64,000 bases of DNA, from contig CAVQSP010000015.1 in the NCBI GenBank assembly GCA_963715985.1, positions 32,001-96,000 on the forward strand, in the 5' to 3' direction. The notes below the pieces were generated by a model. The model made no database searches and was not told the origin of the DNA. It worked only from the letters and a program-made list of their open reading frames with translations. The stretch comes from an uncultured Thermoleophilia bacterium (GTDB lineage: Bacteria; Actinomycetota; Thermoleophilia; UBA2241). Made by a program: the position numbers and the translations under genes. Below are positions 2,435 to 64,000 of this stretch, one piece after another (the first letter of the stretch is position 1; the number at the start of each line of letters is the position of its first letter).

Positions 2435-2619
2435 GGACCCATCGACTCCTTTCTCGTGCGGCGTCGTGCCGGAGTGCCGCGGGCTGCTGCGGGTCGTGGG
2501 GCCAGGTGCGCGTCCCACGGTCGCCGGCGACGGGCGGCGGACAGGACTCTGCCCGGGCGCGAGGTCCGCCCGGCGGGATGCCCCGAGTGTAGCAACGGGG
2601 GCCGCGGGGAGAAGAGAGT

Positions 2620-2656
2620 ACTATGAGGGTTCAATGATAGTAATAACCCCGTATTG
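2620..2656. promoter_or_regulatory. AT-rich imperfect inverted repeat in the divergent promoter region (possible regulator site)
   Basis: tatgagggtt-caatgatagtaat-aaccccgta in an AT-rich patch between the divergent oxidoreductase and LuxR genes. Confidence 0.3.
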
Positions 2657-2667
2657 AGGAAGGCCCA

Positions 2668-3954
2668 GTGGATACGCCGCCAGAGCCGCCGACCGGCTTC
2701 AAGCTGCCGTCTCTCAACGACCCCATCCCGCGGCCCGACCGGCGCCCTCCGGCCCAGTCGCGCTTCAGCGCCTTCGTGGACTCCGTGTACGACGCGTACT
2801 ACGACTGGCACATCCACACGGGGTACATGGAGTTCTCGGCACAGATGGACGCTCTGCTCGGCCTGGCGCCGGACAGCCTGCCGCGGGCCTTCGCCGCGTG
2901 GCTCGACCGCCTGCATCCGGAGGATCGAGGGGCCACCGTGCGGCTCGTCGGGGCGGCGGTCCGCGACGGCGGCGTGTACCGCGACGAGTACCGTCTGCGG
3001 CGCGAGGACGGCACCTACGTGCGCGTGAGCGACCGAGGGGTCGTGCTGAGGGACGAGGACGGCCGCTCCTCCCACATGGTCGGCGCCATCCGCGACATCT
3101 CCCAGGAACTGGAGGCGCAGCGCGCCCTGCACGAGGCGGCCGAGCTGTACCGCACGCTCTTCGAGAGCGCGGTCAACCCGGCGTTCCAGATCGCCGAGGA
3201 CGGGCGCTTCGTGGACGCCAACGCGGCCGGCACCCGCTTTCTGGAGACCAGCCGTGCGCAGCTCCTGCGCCGGGGCGTGGACGCCGTGTGGGGCGCCGCG
3301 GCCCTGGCGGCCGTGCGCGCGGCCACGGCGTCGGGCGCCGCCGCGTCGCTCGAGCTGGAGCTCGAGCTGGGCGGCGCCGTCAAGGCCCTTGCGGTGAGCC
3401 TGGTGCCGTGCCGCTACCGCGGGGCGCCCACGTGCTTCGCCCTCGGCACGGACATCACCGACCACCGCACCCTGCGCACCGCCCTCGAGGAGTCGGAGGC
3501 GTCGCTGCGCCGCCAGGCCGATGCGCTGTCAGACAGCAACACGGCCCTGCGCGTGATCCTCGAGCAGCGCAATCGCGACCGCGCCGAGCTCGAGCGCACC
3601 ATCTCGGACAACGTGGAGACCATGGTCCTGCCGATGCTCGGGCGCTTGAGCAAGCCGCTCACCGGCACGCCCGAGAGCATCTACCTCGACGCGGCGACGC
3701 AGGCGCTGCGCGAGGTGGTGAGCCCGTTCGCGCAGGCGTTGAGCCCGGCCGCCGAGAGCGGTGCGCAGCTCACGCCGCGCGAACGCGAGATCGCCGGGCT
3801 CATCCGCGTGGGCCGCAGCAGCAGCGAGATCGCGGAGGCACTGTACATCTCCCCCACCACAGTGGCCTTCCACCGCAAGAACCTGCGCCGCAAGCTCGGC
3901 CTGGGCCCCCGCGGGCCGCGTCTGGCCTCGCACCTCGGGCGCACGCCGGGCTGA
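2668..3954 (+). CDS. PAS-domain LuxR-family transcriptional regulator
   Basis: PAS/PAC segments (WLDRLHPEDR, EYRLRREDG, TDITD) and a C-terminal LuxR HTH (LTPREREIA...IAEALYISPTTVAFHRKNLRRKL). Confidence 0.9.
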   Translation: MDTPPEPPTGFKLPSLNDPIPRPDRRPPAQSRFSAFVDSVYDAYYDWHIHTGYMEFSAQMDALLGLAPDSLPRAFAAWLDRLHPEDRGATVRLVGAAVRDGGVYRDEYRLRREDGTYVRVSDRGVVLRDEDGRSSHMVGAIRDISQELEAQRALHEAAELYRTLFESAVNPAFQIAEDGRFVDANAAGTRFLETSRAQLLRRGVDAVWGAAALAAVRAATASGAAASLELELELGGAVKALAVSLVPCRYRGAPTCFALGTDITDHRTLRTALEESEASLRRQADALSDSNTALRVILEQRNRDRAELERTISDNVETMVLPMLGRLSKPLTGTPESIYLDAATQALREVVSPFAQALSPAAESGAQLTPREREIAGLIRVGRSSSEIAEALYISPTTVAFHRKNLRRKLGLGPRGPRLASHLGRTPG

Positions 3955-60981: not shown

Positions 60982-62217
60982 CTAGCTTCGACTCCCGCAC
61001 GGGGCGGCGCTCGGGCGGCGCCTCACGCCCGGGCGGGCGACGTGCAGCGCGGCCGCCTCCCTGTAGACCGCGACGGTGCCGGCCACCATCCGCGGCACCG
61101 TGAACTCGCGGCGGGCGCGCCGCTGGGCCTGCTCGCCGAGACGCGCCCGCAGGGCGTCGTCCTCGAGCAGGCGCCGCAGGGCGCCCGTCAGCGCGGCCGG
61201 CTCTCCGGGCGGCACCACGAGCCCCGTCACACCGTCCCGGTTGGCGAACGGCACACCGGTGGGCAGCGACGTCGAGACGACCGGCGTGCCGGCGGCGTGC
61301 GCCTCGATCTGCACCAGCCCGAAGGCCTCGCTGCGCGCCACGCTGGGCAGGCACAGGAGGTCGGCGGCGTGGTACCAGGCGGCCAGCTCGCCGTCGTCCT
61401 GCGCGGGCAGGAAGGTGGTGCGGGCGCCCATGCCCAGCGACAAGGCCAGCGCCCGCAGGTCGTCCTCCAGCGGGCCGCGGCCGATCAGGACCAGGTCGGC
61501 ATCCACGCCGGCCATGGCCCGTACCAGCACGTCGGCTCCCTTGTAGTACACCAGGCGCCCCACGAAGAGCACCAGCGGGCGCCCGGCGTGCGCGGCGCGC
61601 ATCTGCGCCGCGCGCTCCCGCACGCCGGGCGCCGCAGTCAGCTTCGCCGCCGGCAGCCCGAACGGCACCACGCGGCACTTGCCGGCACGCGGCGCCAGGA
61701 ACGGGGAGTACTTCACCATGTCCGGCGACGACGTCACGATGAGGTCGACTCTATCGAGAAAGCGCTCCAGGAAGGGGGCGTACGCGGCGAGCAGGCGCCT
61801 CTGGCGGACGATGTCGCTGTGGTAGAGGACGACGCTGGGGACATCCGGACGGGCCATGAGGAATGAGAGTTCGCCCCACGGGTACGGGGCGTGGAAGTTG
61901 AGCACGTCTGGGCGGTCCGGCCGCCGGAGCTCCTCGCGCAGGGCCGCCGGCATGCCTGCGGCCACCGGCGCGGAGGACACCACGAGTCGCCTCGGCAGCC
62001 GCGTGACGCGCACCGCGCCCACGGTCTCTTCGAGAAGGCTGGGCCCCTCGTTGCACACCAGGGCGTGCACCGCGGCCCCGGCGTGTTCCACTAGACCCTC
62101 GGACAGCGTGCGCACGACGGTCTCCACGCCGCCGAGGTGCGGCGGCGAGTAGTACTTGTTGATCATCGTCACGCGCGGCGGGCGGCGGGCGCCCGGAGGG
62201 GAGCCGGCCGCCATCAC
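60982..62217 (-). CDS. GT4-family glycosyltransferase
   Basis: GGVE, YHSDIVRQ, FVGRLVYYKG, SEAFGLVQIEA. Confidence 0.92.
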   Translation of the reverse strand: MMAAGSPPGARRPPRVTMINKYYSPPHLGGVETVVRTLSEGLVEHAGAAVHALVCNEGPSLLEETVGAVRVTRLPRRLVVSSAPVAAGMPAALREELRRPDRPDVLNFHAPYPWGELSFLMARPDVPSVVLYHSDIVRQRRLLAAYAPFLERFLDRVDLIVTSSPDMVKYSPFLAPRAGKCRVVPFGLPAAKLTAAPGVRERAAQMRAAHAGRPLVLFVGRLVYYKGADVLVRAMAGVDADLVLIGRGPLEDDLRALALSLGMGARTTFLPAQDDGELAAWYHAADLLCLPSVARSEAFGLVQIEAHAAGTPVVSTSLPTGVPFANRDGVTGLVVPPGEPAALTGALRRLLEDDALRARLGEQAQRRARREFTVPRMVAGTVAVYREAAALHVARPGVRRRPSAAPCGSRS

Positions 62218-62284
62218 CCGTCCTGACGGCGCTTCGTGCGTCTGCTCACACCACGGCCCGAAGTCGACATGCGTTGCTCCGATG

Positions 62285-63373
62285 TCAACTCGCCAGCATC
62301 AGGGCTGGCTGAGTCGACGTTGTGGTTGCGGCAAGCATAGCATCCCGGCGCGCCTCGGCGGCGCGCAGAGCCCGCCAGACGGTGCGCGCCAGGTGACGCT
62401 TCAGGCAGCGAGAGCCTCGCGCTTGGTCTTGCCCTCAGCGCGTCTGCGCTCGAGGTAGACACGCGCCGGGTCGTGCATGCGTATCTGCGTGACGGCGATG
62501 CGGTGCAGGGCGCAGTTGAGGCGGCGGTTGCCGCGGCGGTTGAGGCGGTAGCGGTCACTCCTGCCGCTCGAGACCGGCACGGGGGCGACGCCGGCTGTGC
62601 ATGGCGAAGCGGGCCGCACTGCGCGAAGCGCGCCGCGCCCGCCGTCTCGCCGACGAGGCGCGGCAGCGGTGAGGCCGCCGCAGCCCAGGCAGGGCGAGCA
62701 GCTCAGGGGCGAGCGCACCGGCCATGGCGCCGACCTCGCCCTCCAGGGCGCGGATCTCGGCGTTGAGCGCGCGGCAACGGTCGGTCAGCTCGCGGGCGAT
62801 GCGCACCTGGATGCGCCCTCGAGGCCGCCCAGCTGCGCCTCGACGCGGTCGAGCCAGCGGGTGCTGCGCAGGGCCTTCGGCGGGACCTCGAGCGCCGATG
62901 CCGAGGTCGTGCAGATGCCAGCGCAGCCGTCCCTGGAGGCGGGTGCGCTCGGCCGACGAGGTCGTCGCGGTGGTCGGCCAGCAGGCGCAGCTCGCGCTCG
63001 GGGCCGGCGAGACAGCGCCGCGGGCAGGTCCGGCTCACGGAGCGCGGCGCGGGCGACGGCAGCAGCGTCGATCGGGTCGCTCTTGCCGCGGGTGCGCGCG
63101 CTACGGCGCACGCCGGCCATGAGCTTGGGGCGGCACACGCACGCAGCTCTCGCCGCGCTCCACGAGGAAGCGCTCGAGACGTCCGGAGACGTGGCGGCAG
63201 TCTTCGAGAGCGAAGCGGCGCTCGGGGGCGAGCGTGCGTGCCCAAGCCAAGAGGCGGCCATGGCCGCGATCCGTGGCCGGCACCGTGAACTCGCCGACGA
63301 GTTCTCCGGTCACCGCCTCGAGGGCCACCGCGGTGTGGCTCTTCTTGTGCGGGTCGATCCCGAGTACGATCAT
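62285..63373 (-). CDS. IS110 transposase/recombinase (several frameshifts)
   Basis: MIVLGIDPHK, ALED, GKSDPIDA (RuvC-like DEDD); GVAPVPVSSG, RLNRRGNRRLN, LKRHLARTVW (Tnp domain). The reconstructed stop TGA overlaps the TTGACA. Confidence 0.85.
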
Positions 63374-63384
63374 CTCTGTCCCCT

Positions 63385-63612
63385 TTCGGTGCGCATCCCG
63401 AACTGCGGGACCGCCGGTGGACAGCTCTTGGTCGGGGCCTCTCAGCCAGGCTCCTATCAGGTCACGCCGGCGAACCTGCGGCAGGTGGCGGGGGACACAA
63501 CGCATGCTGGTCAGTCCCGTCGGACGACACGGAGCCTAGGAGTCACCCCGCCACCACGCTGCAGGCTACCCGATCGAGATCGGGAACCCTACGAGACAGA
63601 GCCTGACACCAA
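63385..63612 (-). ncRNA. Putative IS110 bridge RNA (target-binding and donor-binding loops)
   Basis: Two similar stem-loops (TGAC...guide...inner hairpin...guide...TGTCC) at 63484-63555 and about 63412-63472; guide segments match the insertion flanks and the downstream element end. RNA boundaries are approximate. Confidence 0.7.
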
Positions 63613-63763
63613 CACGATTCTACGCGACAGGGAGCGACCCCGGCGAAGCGCGCCCTCCGGCAGCGGCGCGCCGGACGCCTCCCCCCGATACGAACGTGAG
63701 AGGATGTGGGTCGTGGACCGACTCCGCGGCAGCTCCGCGGACGAGCCCGGAGGGGACGTACTG

Positions 63764-64000
63764 GTGTTGACGGTCGACGCGATCGTGGTGAACCACAACA
63801 CGAGGGACCTGCTGCGCGCCAGCCTCACCTCCCTGCGCGCCTCGCGCCGGCCTCTCAGCCGCGTGCTCGTCGTCGACAACGCCTCGGTCGACGGCAGCGC
63901 GGAGATGGTGCGCACCGAGTTCCCCGAGGCCGGCCTCTTCCGCATGCGCGAGAACGTCGGCTTCGCGCGCGCCAACAACGTCGCCTTCGCCGAGACCTGC
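63764..64000 (+). CDS. GT2-family glycosyltransferase (runs off the right edge)
   Basis: Manual translation: DAIVVNHNTRDLL...VLVVDNASVDGS...ENVGFARANN; SD GGAGG. Confidence 0.88.
   Translation, partial: MLTVDAIVVNHNTRDLLRASLTSLRASRRPLSRVLVVDNASVDGSAEMVRTEFPEAGLFRMRENVGFARANNVAFAETC

Follow-up and report, generated by a model that had tools for sequence, protein, structure and literature searches.

An IS110-group insertion sequence with a predicted bridge RNA between divergent glycosyltransferase genes of a Thermoleophilia bacterium

The locus

The DNA considered here is a stretch of 64,000 nucleotides (hereafter the window) from the genome assembly of an uncultured Thermoleophilia bacterium (GCA_963715985.1, contig CAVQSP010000015.1, positions 32,001 to 96,000 of the forward strand). 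On its minus strand, between two divergently oriented glycosyltransferase genes, it carries a 1340-bp insertion that is very probably an IS110-group insertion sequence with a bridge RNA encoded in its left end; this is the explanation that best accounts for the observations as a whole. The element is a new member, from a distant, high-GC clade, of the family whose bridge RNA logic has been published for IS621. The earlier suggestion, in a first-pass annotation of the same DNA, that it might represent an uncharacterized subtype is not borne out: its architecture and pairing logic match those of IS621, as set out in the accessible parts of PMC11208160 and PMC11208158. The features to which the text refers are these, the element first and its surroundings last:

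62273..63612, minus strand: inserted IS110-group element, 1340 bp, with left end TTGGTGTCAGG... and right end ...TTGACATCGGAGCAAC
63600..63612, minus strand: left end, TTGGTGT (right-donor half-site) and then CAGGCT; the right-donor guide covaries with the four bases TTGG
63569..63584, minus strand: 5' stem-loop of the predicted bridge RNA (CCCGAT/ATCGGG), from the window fold, with a hairpin at the same place in the alignment of relatives
63484..63555, minus strand: predicted target-binding loop (loop 1), closed by a 10-bp stem, the outer stem extending to about 63476-63567, from the folds; its inner segments vary among relatives
63530..63539, minus strand: left-target guide position CTAGGCTCCG in the family register, without a match to its own site
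63496..63510, minus strand: right-target guide and handshake bases, reverse complement CA-AC-GCATG-CTGG, of which nine contiguous bases match the junction CA-AC-GCATG
63412..63472, minus strand: predicted donor-binding loop (loop 2), from the consensus and window folds
63450..63458, minus strand: left-donor guide GATAGGAGC, equal to the family right-end sequence ATAGGAGC
63424..63432, minus strand: right-donor guide ACCAAGAGC (reverse complement GCTCTTGGT), which fits the left end TTGGT
62285..63373, minus strand: IS110 transposase reading frame with about ten single-base frameshifts, from three-frame translation and alignment to the intact gene of a relative (L013)
62273..62288, minus strand: right end, comprising TTGACA (62288-62283, resembling a -35 box), the left-donor half-site TCGGAGCA (62282-62275) and the donor core AC (62274-62273)
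63613..63622, minus strand: host left flank, TAGAATCG and then TG at the target core position (63614-63613), from comparison with the genome G056
62268..62272, minus strand: host right flank GCATG, the right-target half-site; homology to G056 starts exactly at 62272
60982..62217, minus strand: host neighbor, group 1 (family 4) glycosyltransferase (GT4), intact, 411 aa, start at 62217
63704..64000, plus strand: host neighbor, family 2 glycosyltransferase (GT2), 301 aa, start at 63704, running past the end of the window

Boundaries and the empty site

The limits of the element are set by an empty site. A genus-wide search with the neighboring GT2 gene covered 54 genomes, four of them matching, the window's own genome (G000) included. 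One of these, G056, has orthologues of both GT4 and GT2 with no element between them, and its uninterrupted sequence reads ...CGCGTAGAATCGCG|GCATGGCGAAC... (also given as ...CGCGTAGAATCGCG|GCATGG...). By local alignment the join in G056 (L105 2743|2744) corresponds to 63613|62272 of the window; the insertion consequently runs exactly from 63612 to 62273, 1340 bp, and in comparison with G056 it has entered without target duplication and without loss of host bases. The left boundary has independent support from a further copy, on a contig of sequencing run X2, which is 99% identical to 63445-63612 (one differing letter and one gap) and diverges exactly after 63612. The sequence CGCGTAGAATCG(C/T)G is common to the window's left flank and to G056 at 13 of 14 positions, and the TAGAAT found at 63622-63617 is host DNA, outside the element. 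Since GT2 diverges from GT4, the element lies in the shared upstream region of both genes. It is present as a single copy in the window's genome assembly.

The first-pass annotation, all of whose quoted strings do occur on the minus strand where it placed them, had put the element at 63630..62276 and reconstructed the empty site as GTCGCTCC|AACGCATG. Both reconstructions are superseded by G056: the left boundary had been drawn 18 nt too far out. The error has an instructive source, in that an empty site reconstructed by eye can err by this much when a boundary is guessed from a 5-nt identity. The identity in question is GCTCC, found both in loop 1 (63535-63531) and upstream (63635-63631): the strings are real, and their coincidence is at chance level (P ~0.24), since 24% of 60-nt segments drawn at random from the window contain some 5-mer of the 10-nt left guide. 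With the G056 empty site in hand, the upstream GCTCC is seen to be host DNA, 19 nt outside the element.

(Three side notes on this region. An earlier search for an empty site had covered five same-genus loci with the GT4 orthologue, L007-L010 and L014, and found the window's left-flank gene near none of them. In genome G055 the GT2 and GT4 orthologues are separated by about 1.1 kb (L106, G055:C29 ~2539-3675), compared with about 220 nt in G056; this locus was dropped as an empty site when the intervening ~1.1 kb did not align, and the extra DNA is not this element. The TAGAAT box at 63617-63622 on the minus strand, intergenic in the host and kept in G056, is now 5 nt away from the left end of the element and is a possible host -10 box, cut off from the GT4 gene by the insertion.)

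The bridge RNA and the guide rules of the family

The non-coding left end of the element, upstream of the transposase, amounts to 239 nt (63612-63374); the right end is short. Folded by itself, the window's sequence forms two loops at -111.1 kcal/mol (z -2.66), and none of 200 shuffled versions folds as well. The stem closing loop 1 is formed by GGTGGCGGGG (63555-63546), which is exactly complementary to CCCCGCCACC (63493-63484). A consensus structure of relatives, for which 40 sequences were picked and the two most divergent (L017 and L019) left out beforehand to give 38, comprises 36 pairs, of which 14 show compensatory changes; in shape it begins with a hairpin, after which come two stem-loops that have large internal loops and a small inner hairpin apiece. 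The two-loop RNA upstream of the transposase that the first-pass annotation had described is thus found in the window's fold and in the 38-sequence consensus alike. In alignments of the relatives loop 1 is variable and loop 2 is conserved, the 5' motif of the latter, GTGACYYGATAGRAGC, appearing in 77 of the 100 sequences examined.

The relatives on which these comparisons depend are plentiful. Close copies were sought in 41 related genomes: the closest, L005, is 81% identical over 63609..62268, and others are L006, L013, which retains an intact 373-aa gene (protein P0001), and L015. Scanning with P0001, one genome per species, yielded 80 loci, nearly all in Thermoleophilia or Solirubrobacterales-type metagenome-assembled genomes (MAGs) and many of them in several copies per genome; the clade to which the element belongs is common in Thermoleophilia and in Solirubrobacterales-like Actinomycetota. 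Where a family has multiple copies its ends are sharp: the left one opens with TCA(C/G)TGTCA, about 255 nt ahead of the ATG, and the right one closes 10 nt past TTGACA. A right-end motif, TTGACATAGRAG..., is carried by 64 of the 77 loci that have the loop-2 motif.

What the loops contain emerges from aligning these elements with their flanks: 1) in loop 1, TGAC(C/T)C is followed by 10 nt that repeat the 8-10 nt immediately beyond the left end; 2) the 3' side of loop 1 is complementary to the right junction; 3) the 3' side of loop 2 is complementary to the first bases of the left end. With one element counted per distinct guide, and with shuffled partners as the null, 32 distinct left-target guides give 170 matches to their flanks (99.6 +/- 9.7 when shuffled) and 25 distinct right-target guides give 184 (103.7 +/- 8.1), neither total being reached in 10,000 shuffles. 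The covariation of loop-1 guides with insertion flanks that the first-pass annotation had proposed as a check is accordingly present across the 77 related loci. Allowing a shift of 0-3 nt, 63 of 67 distinct left guide/junction pairs match at 7 or more of 10 positions, as against 99 of 3478 mismatched pairs; on the right, 37 of 50 family pairs do so. The left-target register is either 0 or +1 nt (45 and 17 cases, respectively). In loop 2 the right-donor guide tracks the left-end tetranucleotide across the family, through TCAG, TCAC, TCTG, TCAA, TTAG and TTGG. That the 8-mers to the left belong to the flank and not to the element follows from L029 and L101, which share a bridge RNA with L030, yet differ there. 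Because of this covariation loop 1 is the predicted target-binding loop and loop 2 the predicted donor-binding loop, as the first-pass annotation had them.

Of the two core bases, the second is the same at both junctions in 43 of 58 pairs (26.6 +/- 3.5 in shuffles), the first in only 4 of 58. Two registers were tried; the better fit comes from a core at bases 9-10 past TTGACA, the other register suits some families, and the position of the crossover is uncertain by about 2 nt.

The window's guides at their own junctions

How well do the window's guides fit the place at which their element resides? The right half fits closely. The 9-mers CATGCGTTG (63506-63498) and CAACGCATG (62276-62268) are exact reverse complements, and neither has a second occurrence in the 64-kb window. 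The first-pass annotation, which noticed this match, took it for a right guide of unusual length (8-9 nt); the family register instead resolves the nine bases into CA, the handshake (the last two bases of the element), AC, the donor core, and GCATG, the target. The full right junction reads CA-AC-GCATG-TCGA against a guide whose reverse complement is CA-AC-GCATG-CTGG, for a score of 8 out of 10, which only 2 of 1402 mismatched guide/junction pairs attain. The match is beyond chance, and CATGCGTTG is the right-target guide region.

The donor guides also fit. On the left-donor side ATAGGAGC (63457-63450) agrees with the window's right end, ATCGGAGC (62283-62276), at 7 of 8 positions, the odd one being due to change of that right end away from the family consensus; the loop-2 match, already remarked upon in the first-pass annotation, is beyond chance and its motif is the one conserved in 77 of 100 sequences. 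On the right-donor side the left-end TTGG is paired by CCAA in the guide, a change that is compensatory, since most relatives pair TCAG with CTGA. This guide had been judged to match only partly, a consequence of the misplaced left boundary: once the left end is correctly placed (TTGGTGT, 63612-63606), the comparison is of TC-TTGGT with TG-TTGGT.

The transposase gene

The transposase starts at the ATG at 63373 (MIVLGIDPHKKSHTAV...) and can be followed only through about ten changes of frame; it is not a single uninterrupted reading frame. A TGA sharing bases with the TTGACA box, 12 nt from the right end, terminates its last frame; with this stop falling within TTGACATAG, the right end is left minimal. 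Two fragments are recognizable by domain: 63373-63104 matches PF01548 (DEDD_Tnp_IS110, the N-terminal RuvC-like domain) at 32 bits, with a cut-off of 29, and 62718-62404 matches PF02371 (Transposase_20, the C-terminal Tnp domain) at 38.6 bits, with a cut-off of 21.3. The second contains VPVSSGR, which aligns through P0001 with the ESG stretch of IS621, the putative serine loop. The intact relative P0001 matches PF01548 at 79.3 bits, PF02371 as well, and the NCBIfam model NF033542, "IS110 family RNA-guided transposase," at 188.9 bits (cut-off 140). The original attribution to IS110 stands on these matches.

In nucleotide alignment with the intact L013 gene the window's gene has eight one-base insertions and two one-base deletions. 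With its recombinase gene frameshifted about ten times, this copy is most likely dead, and we lean toward regarding it as a true pseudogene.

Promoter and proposed mechanism

The element's two ends are conserved in ways that bring a promoter to mind. All 38 sequences agree on T1, T5, A9 and T13 of the left end, defining TGT-CANNNT, which looks like an extended -10 box; TTGACA occurs in the right end of 64 of 77 loci, and with TGTCA of the left end it makes up a 5-bp inverted repeat. Were the ends joined in a circle, the spacer between the two boxes would be 10 + 7 = 17 nt, a figure computed from the conserved ends and not scanned on a joined sequence. Promoter, transcript and recombination chemistry are what we infer by analogy, the pattern being the junction promoter that the accessible part of PMC11208160 describes for IS621.

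Put together, the proposal is as follows. In active relatives the excised circle would join the right end, with its TTGACA, to the left end, with its TGT-CANNNT, and thereby create a promoter for the bridge RNA, as in IS621. The donor loop would pair with the joined element ends and the target loop with the left and right halves of the target; the DEDD/serine recombinase would then exchange strands just past the two-base core. For the window's copy the outcome would have been insertion, without target duplication, into the shared upstream region of the divergent glycosyltransferase genes.

Weighing the interpretation

Not everything about the window sits comfortably with this account, and the discordant observations are best taken together. 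The most pointed is that the left-target guide does not fit the left flank: 1 of 10 positions in register, 5 of 10 at best with a 1-nt shift, a score that the null reaches or exceeds with a probability of 0.35. The bases at the core positions differ between the junctions as well, being TG on the left and AC on the right. A linear scan of 62150-63760, that is, of the integrated copy, yielded no sigma-70-like promoter site, and no bridge RNA family of Rfam 15 was matched between 61500 and 64000 at E <= 1. Among sequencing runs the best share of sampled words in any was 0.16, with 0.06-0.08 in three RNA runs; the four best DNA runs contain relatives only and not the source organism, and uncovered parts in that comparison carry no meaning. 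Finally, the designation of the copy as dead hinges on correctness of the assembly, about which the pattern of the frameshifts raises questions of its own: the excess of one-base insertions (8 of 10), the absence of stops from all the homologous protein fragments that were read, and a divergence from L005 distributed over first, second and third codon positions as 45/41/98, third positions thus differing about twice as often as either of the others, all point away from long decay, as do the relatives' contigs, from which every window indel that they cover is missing.

(The sole Rfam match, to neisseria_FSE at 62191-62230 on the plus strand, scores 22.7 bits compared with a threshold of 50, E 0.059, and lies over the GT4 start codon at 62217; it is most likely a chance match in GC-rich sequence.)

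Might the element, then, be intact and potentially active, its ten or so frameshifts being consensus errors of a long-read metagenome at a repeat with many close relatives in the community? The idea deserves tentative consideration, although we think it the less probable state of affairs. Several of the insertions lengthen short runs; the stop-free fragments still contain readable GIDPHK, EDCRH, KSDPIDA and VSSGR, which we take to be the catalytic motifs of the transposase; at all six places covered by relatives' contigs (~63127, 62953, 62812, 62622, 62593 and 62410, mapped by hand to +/- 3 nt) the window's indel is missing from them; and L005 and L006, from other MAGs, are frameshifted too, at different places. 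These observations, with those on codon positions, would fit either an assembly artifact or a very recent inactivation. The same assembly, on the other hand, has kept two flanking genes intact (411 and 462 aa) as well as two intact 366-aa genes of another IS110 subgroup; the relatives' contigs come from other samples, are 88-99% identical and are silent on what the source reads say; and the right end departs from the family consensus (ATCGGAGC in place of ATAGGAGC), as decay would predict.

Why should the left-target guide not read its own flank? A later rearrangement of that flank is excluded by its contiguity with the right flank in G056. The first-pass description of the RNA as programmed for this insertion site holds for the right half (8 of 10) and fails for the left. 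Given that right-target guide, handshake and both donor guides fit and the left-target guide does not, we infer that the insertion was most plausibly matched on its right half alone, or else is of greater age, its left guide having changed in the meantime.

The first of these would be a half-matched (off-target) insertion, for which the right-target half and donor recognition sufficed to determine placement. We entertain it at somewhat less than even confidence. On the right the match has no error from handshake through core to GCATG, on the left it is at chance level, and the contiguity of the flanks in G056 means that no later rearrangement moved the left one; the one resemblance on the left, between the flank's TAGAATC and the guide's TAGGCTC, is loose and 3 nt out of register. 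There is a parallel among the relatives: L029 and L101, with the bridge RNA of L030 and the same right flank, CCCCGCGACC, have left flanks that match the guide at only 5 of 10 positions. There is also one in IS621, the accessible part of a preprint (10.64898/2026.08.31.748434) reporting half-match insertion for that element. Against this, only one site is at issue, the guide may have acquired mutations once the element was in place, and half-match activity has been shown for IS621 only, a distant relative. The X2 copy complicates matters further, in that its flank, CTAGACTC, fits a window-type left guide at 7 of 8 positions, which is suggestive, but 2 nt outside the family register; the guide register of this sub-lineage is consequently unsettled.

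The alternative, that the left guide matched at the time of insertion and then drifted, the present guide CTAGGCTC being younger than the insertion, or else that the bridge RNA of a sister copy acted in trans, is unlikely in our estimation. The copy does look decayed, and its sisters differ mainly in loop 1 (the window has CTAGGCTCCG, L005 ATTAGGCTTG, L015 CTTGGGTTGC); moreover, the left junction of L005 fits the guide of L015 instead of its own, so that guide and junction can become uncoupled in this sub-lineage. Drift would nevertheless require at least five changes in 10 nt, far more than the same RNA shows in its other guides (right-target 8/10, left-donor 7/8). As for action in trans, the window's genome assembly (88.8% complete) contains no other copy of the element and no second donor-loop motif, the only extra pattern match having one mismatch and lying about 42 kb from the nearest IS110-family gene on its contig.

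The original model, with the element at 63630..62276, the empty site GTCGCTCC|AACGCATG, a fully programmed loop 1 and an unusually long right guide, can be set aside as highly improbable: its GCTCC identity and its 9-mer are real strings, but the G056 empty site assigns 63613-63630 and 62268-62272 to host DNA, GCTCC matches at chance, and the family register divides the 9-mer 2 + 2 + 5.

If one returns to half-matched insertion and extends it beyond the window, the window's copy together with L029 and L101 would constitute a natural record of half-matched bridge recombination, with the left half unread, in a clade far from IS621. We consider this broader claim rather doubtful. Were it true, right-half specificity would be a constraint on landing sites in wild genomes, and the clade's apparently relaxed core, which may differ between left and right, would be part of its tolerance of half matches.

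(Two of the close relatives should be noted here. Of L015 (G014:C152 ~1498-1724) only a bridge RNA and left end remain, 83% identical to those of the window and not followed by an IS110 transposase; the left guide of this remnant continues to fit its flank at 9 of 10 positions. L005 (G011:C22) looks chimeric: its left flank and the start of its left end (TTGGGTTGCA-TCAG) fit L015-type guides, and fit neither of the corresponding guides of L005 itself (left-target ATTAGGCTTG, right-donor TTGG).)

Relation to known systems

IS110, IS116, IS117, IS900 and IS901/902 are actinobacterial members of the IS110 family, from the same phylum as the window's element; they are reported to be site-specific and to insert without target duplication. 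A literature search on actinobacterial bridge RNAs gave nothing relevant, and no claim is made that none is in print.

IS621 is the system with which comparison is most readily made. The accessible part of PMC11208160 describes, for IS621 and its orthologues, a hairpin and two stem-loops with a variable first loop and a conserved second, and that of PMC11208158 describes an IS621 core whose first base is looser, each junction keeping the core of its own left arm. The features shared with the window's clade, within what these parts of the two papers cover, are many: a DEDD (RuvC-like) domain and a Tnp domain; an RNA encoded in the longer left end, with a 5' hairpin preceding two stem-loops with internal loops; left guides read as the top strand and right guides as the complement; two handshake bases beside the right-target guide that match the last two bases of the donor; a first core base looser than the second, which the clade's agreement at the second base fits; a -35 box in the right end and a -10 box in the left, here putative; and the targeting of repeats by some relatives. 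The differences are as follows: 1) P0001 is only distantly related to the IS621 protein (E 6.5e-8, in the C-terminal domain only). 2) The core here is not CT; donor cores are AC or AG. 3) The left-donor guide ends 3 nt short of the junction, the last left-donor base and the 2-nt core intervening. 4) The left-target register varies by 0 or +1 nt among relatives. 5) The host is high-GC, and this copy is frameshifted and has an unmatched left-target guide.

ISCro4 (PDB 9t56), the second IS110-family recombinase to have been solved, gives the same C-terminal domain match (E 1.9e-7) and is equally distant from P0001, the comparison being one of sequence match alone. The IS1111 group has in common with the window's element the protein family, RNA-guided logic and sub-terminal inverted repeats; as far as the accessible part of PMC11208160 describes it, its seekRNA or bridge RNA is in the right end, whereas here the RNA is in the left end, the right end is minimal and the inverted repeat is only 5 bp (TGACA/TGTCA).

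What does the locus contribute? By itself it carries little weight: it is probably a dead copy, the mechanism of its family was published in 2024, and proteins of this kind are automatically named RNA-guided transposases. The comparison set is more useful, with its 77 high-GC relatives, clean covariation of guide and junction, sharp-ended multi-copy families and intact recombinases (L013, for example). Such a panel is suited to asking how far the rules of IS621 reach into a distant clade with regard to core identity, handshake bases, register and half-site tolerance, and its members are candidate bridge recombinases native to Actinomycetota. What remains of most interest in the window itself is that the left guide has no match, possibly the trace of a half-matched insertion in nature.

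Other elements in the comparison set

The window's genome contains two intact 366-aa IS110-family genes of a different subgroup, L113 (G000:C14:181597-182649) and L114 (G000:C17:78663-79718), which match NF033542 at about 219 bits and are 98.6% identical over 1320 bp; a tblastn search of L113 (and only of that locus) with P0001 gave no match at E 1e-3.

In one MAG, L036-L039 and L091 share flanking sequence of 17 nt on the left and 13 nt on the right, and three have homologous flanks further out, for which reason these copies seem to land in paralogous sequences. In another family (L026, L029-L032, L034 and L101) all copies adjoin the same palindromic repeat (CCCCGCGACCGC ... GGCCCGGGGG) on the right flank, which suggests that it targets an element resembling a repetitive extragenic palindromic (REP) sequence, as is known for IS621. 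L072, L073 and L079, from one MAG, have an identity above 99.8% that extends over at least 2.9 kb, as far as the retrieved sequence goes, and their shared sequence runs into the apparent start of a second IS110-type gene; they may represent a larger or tandem element.

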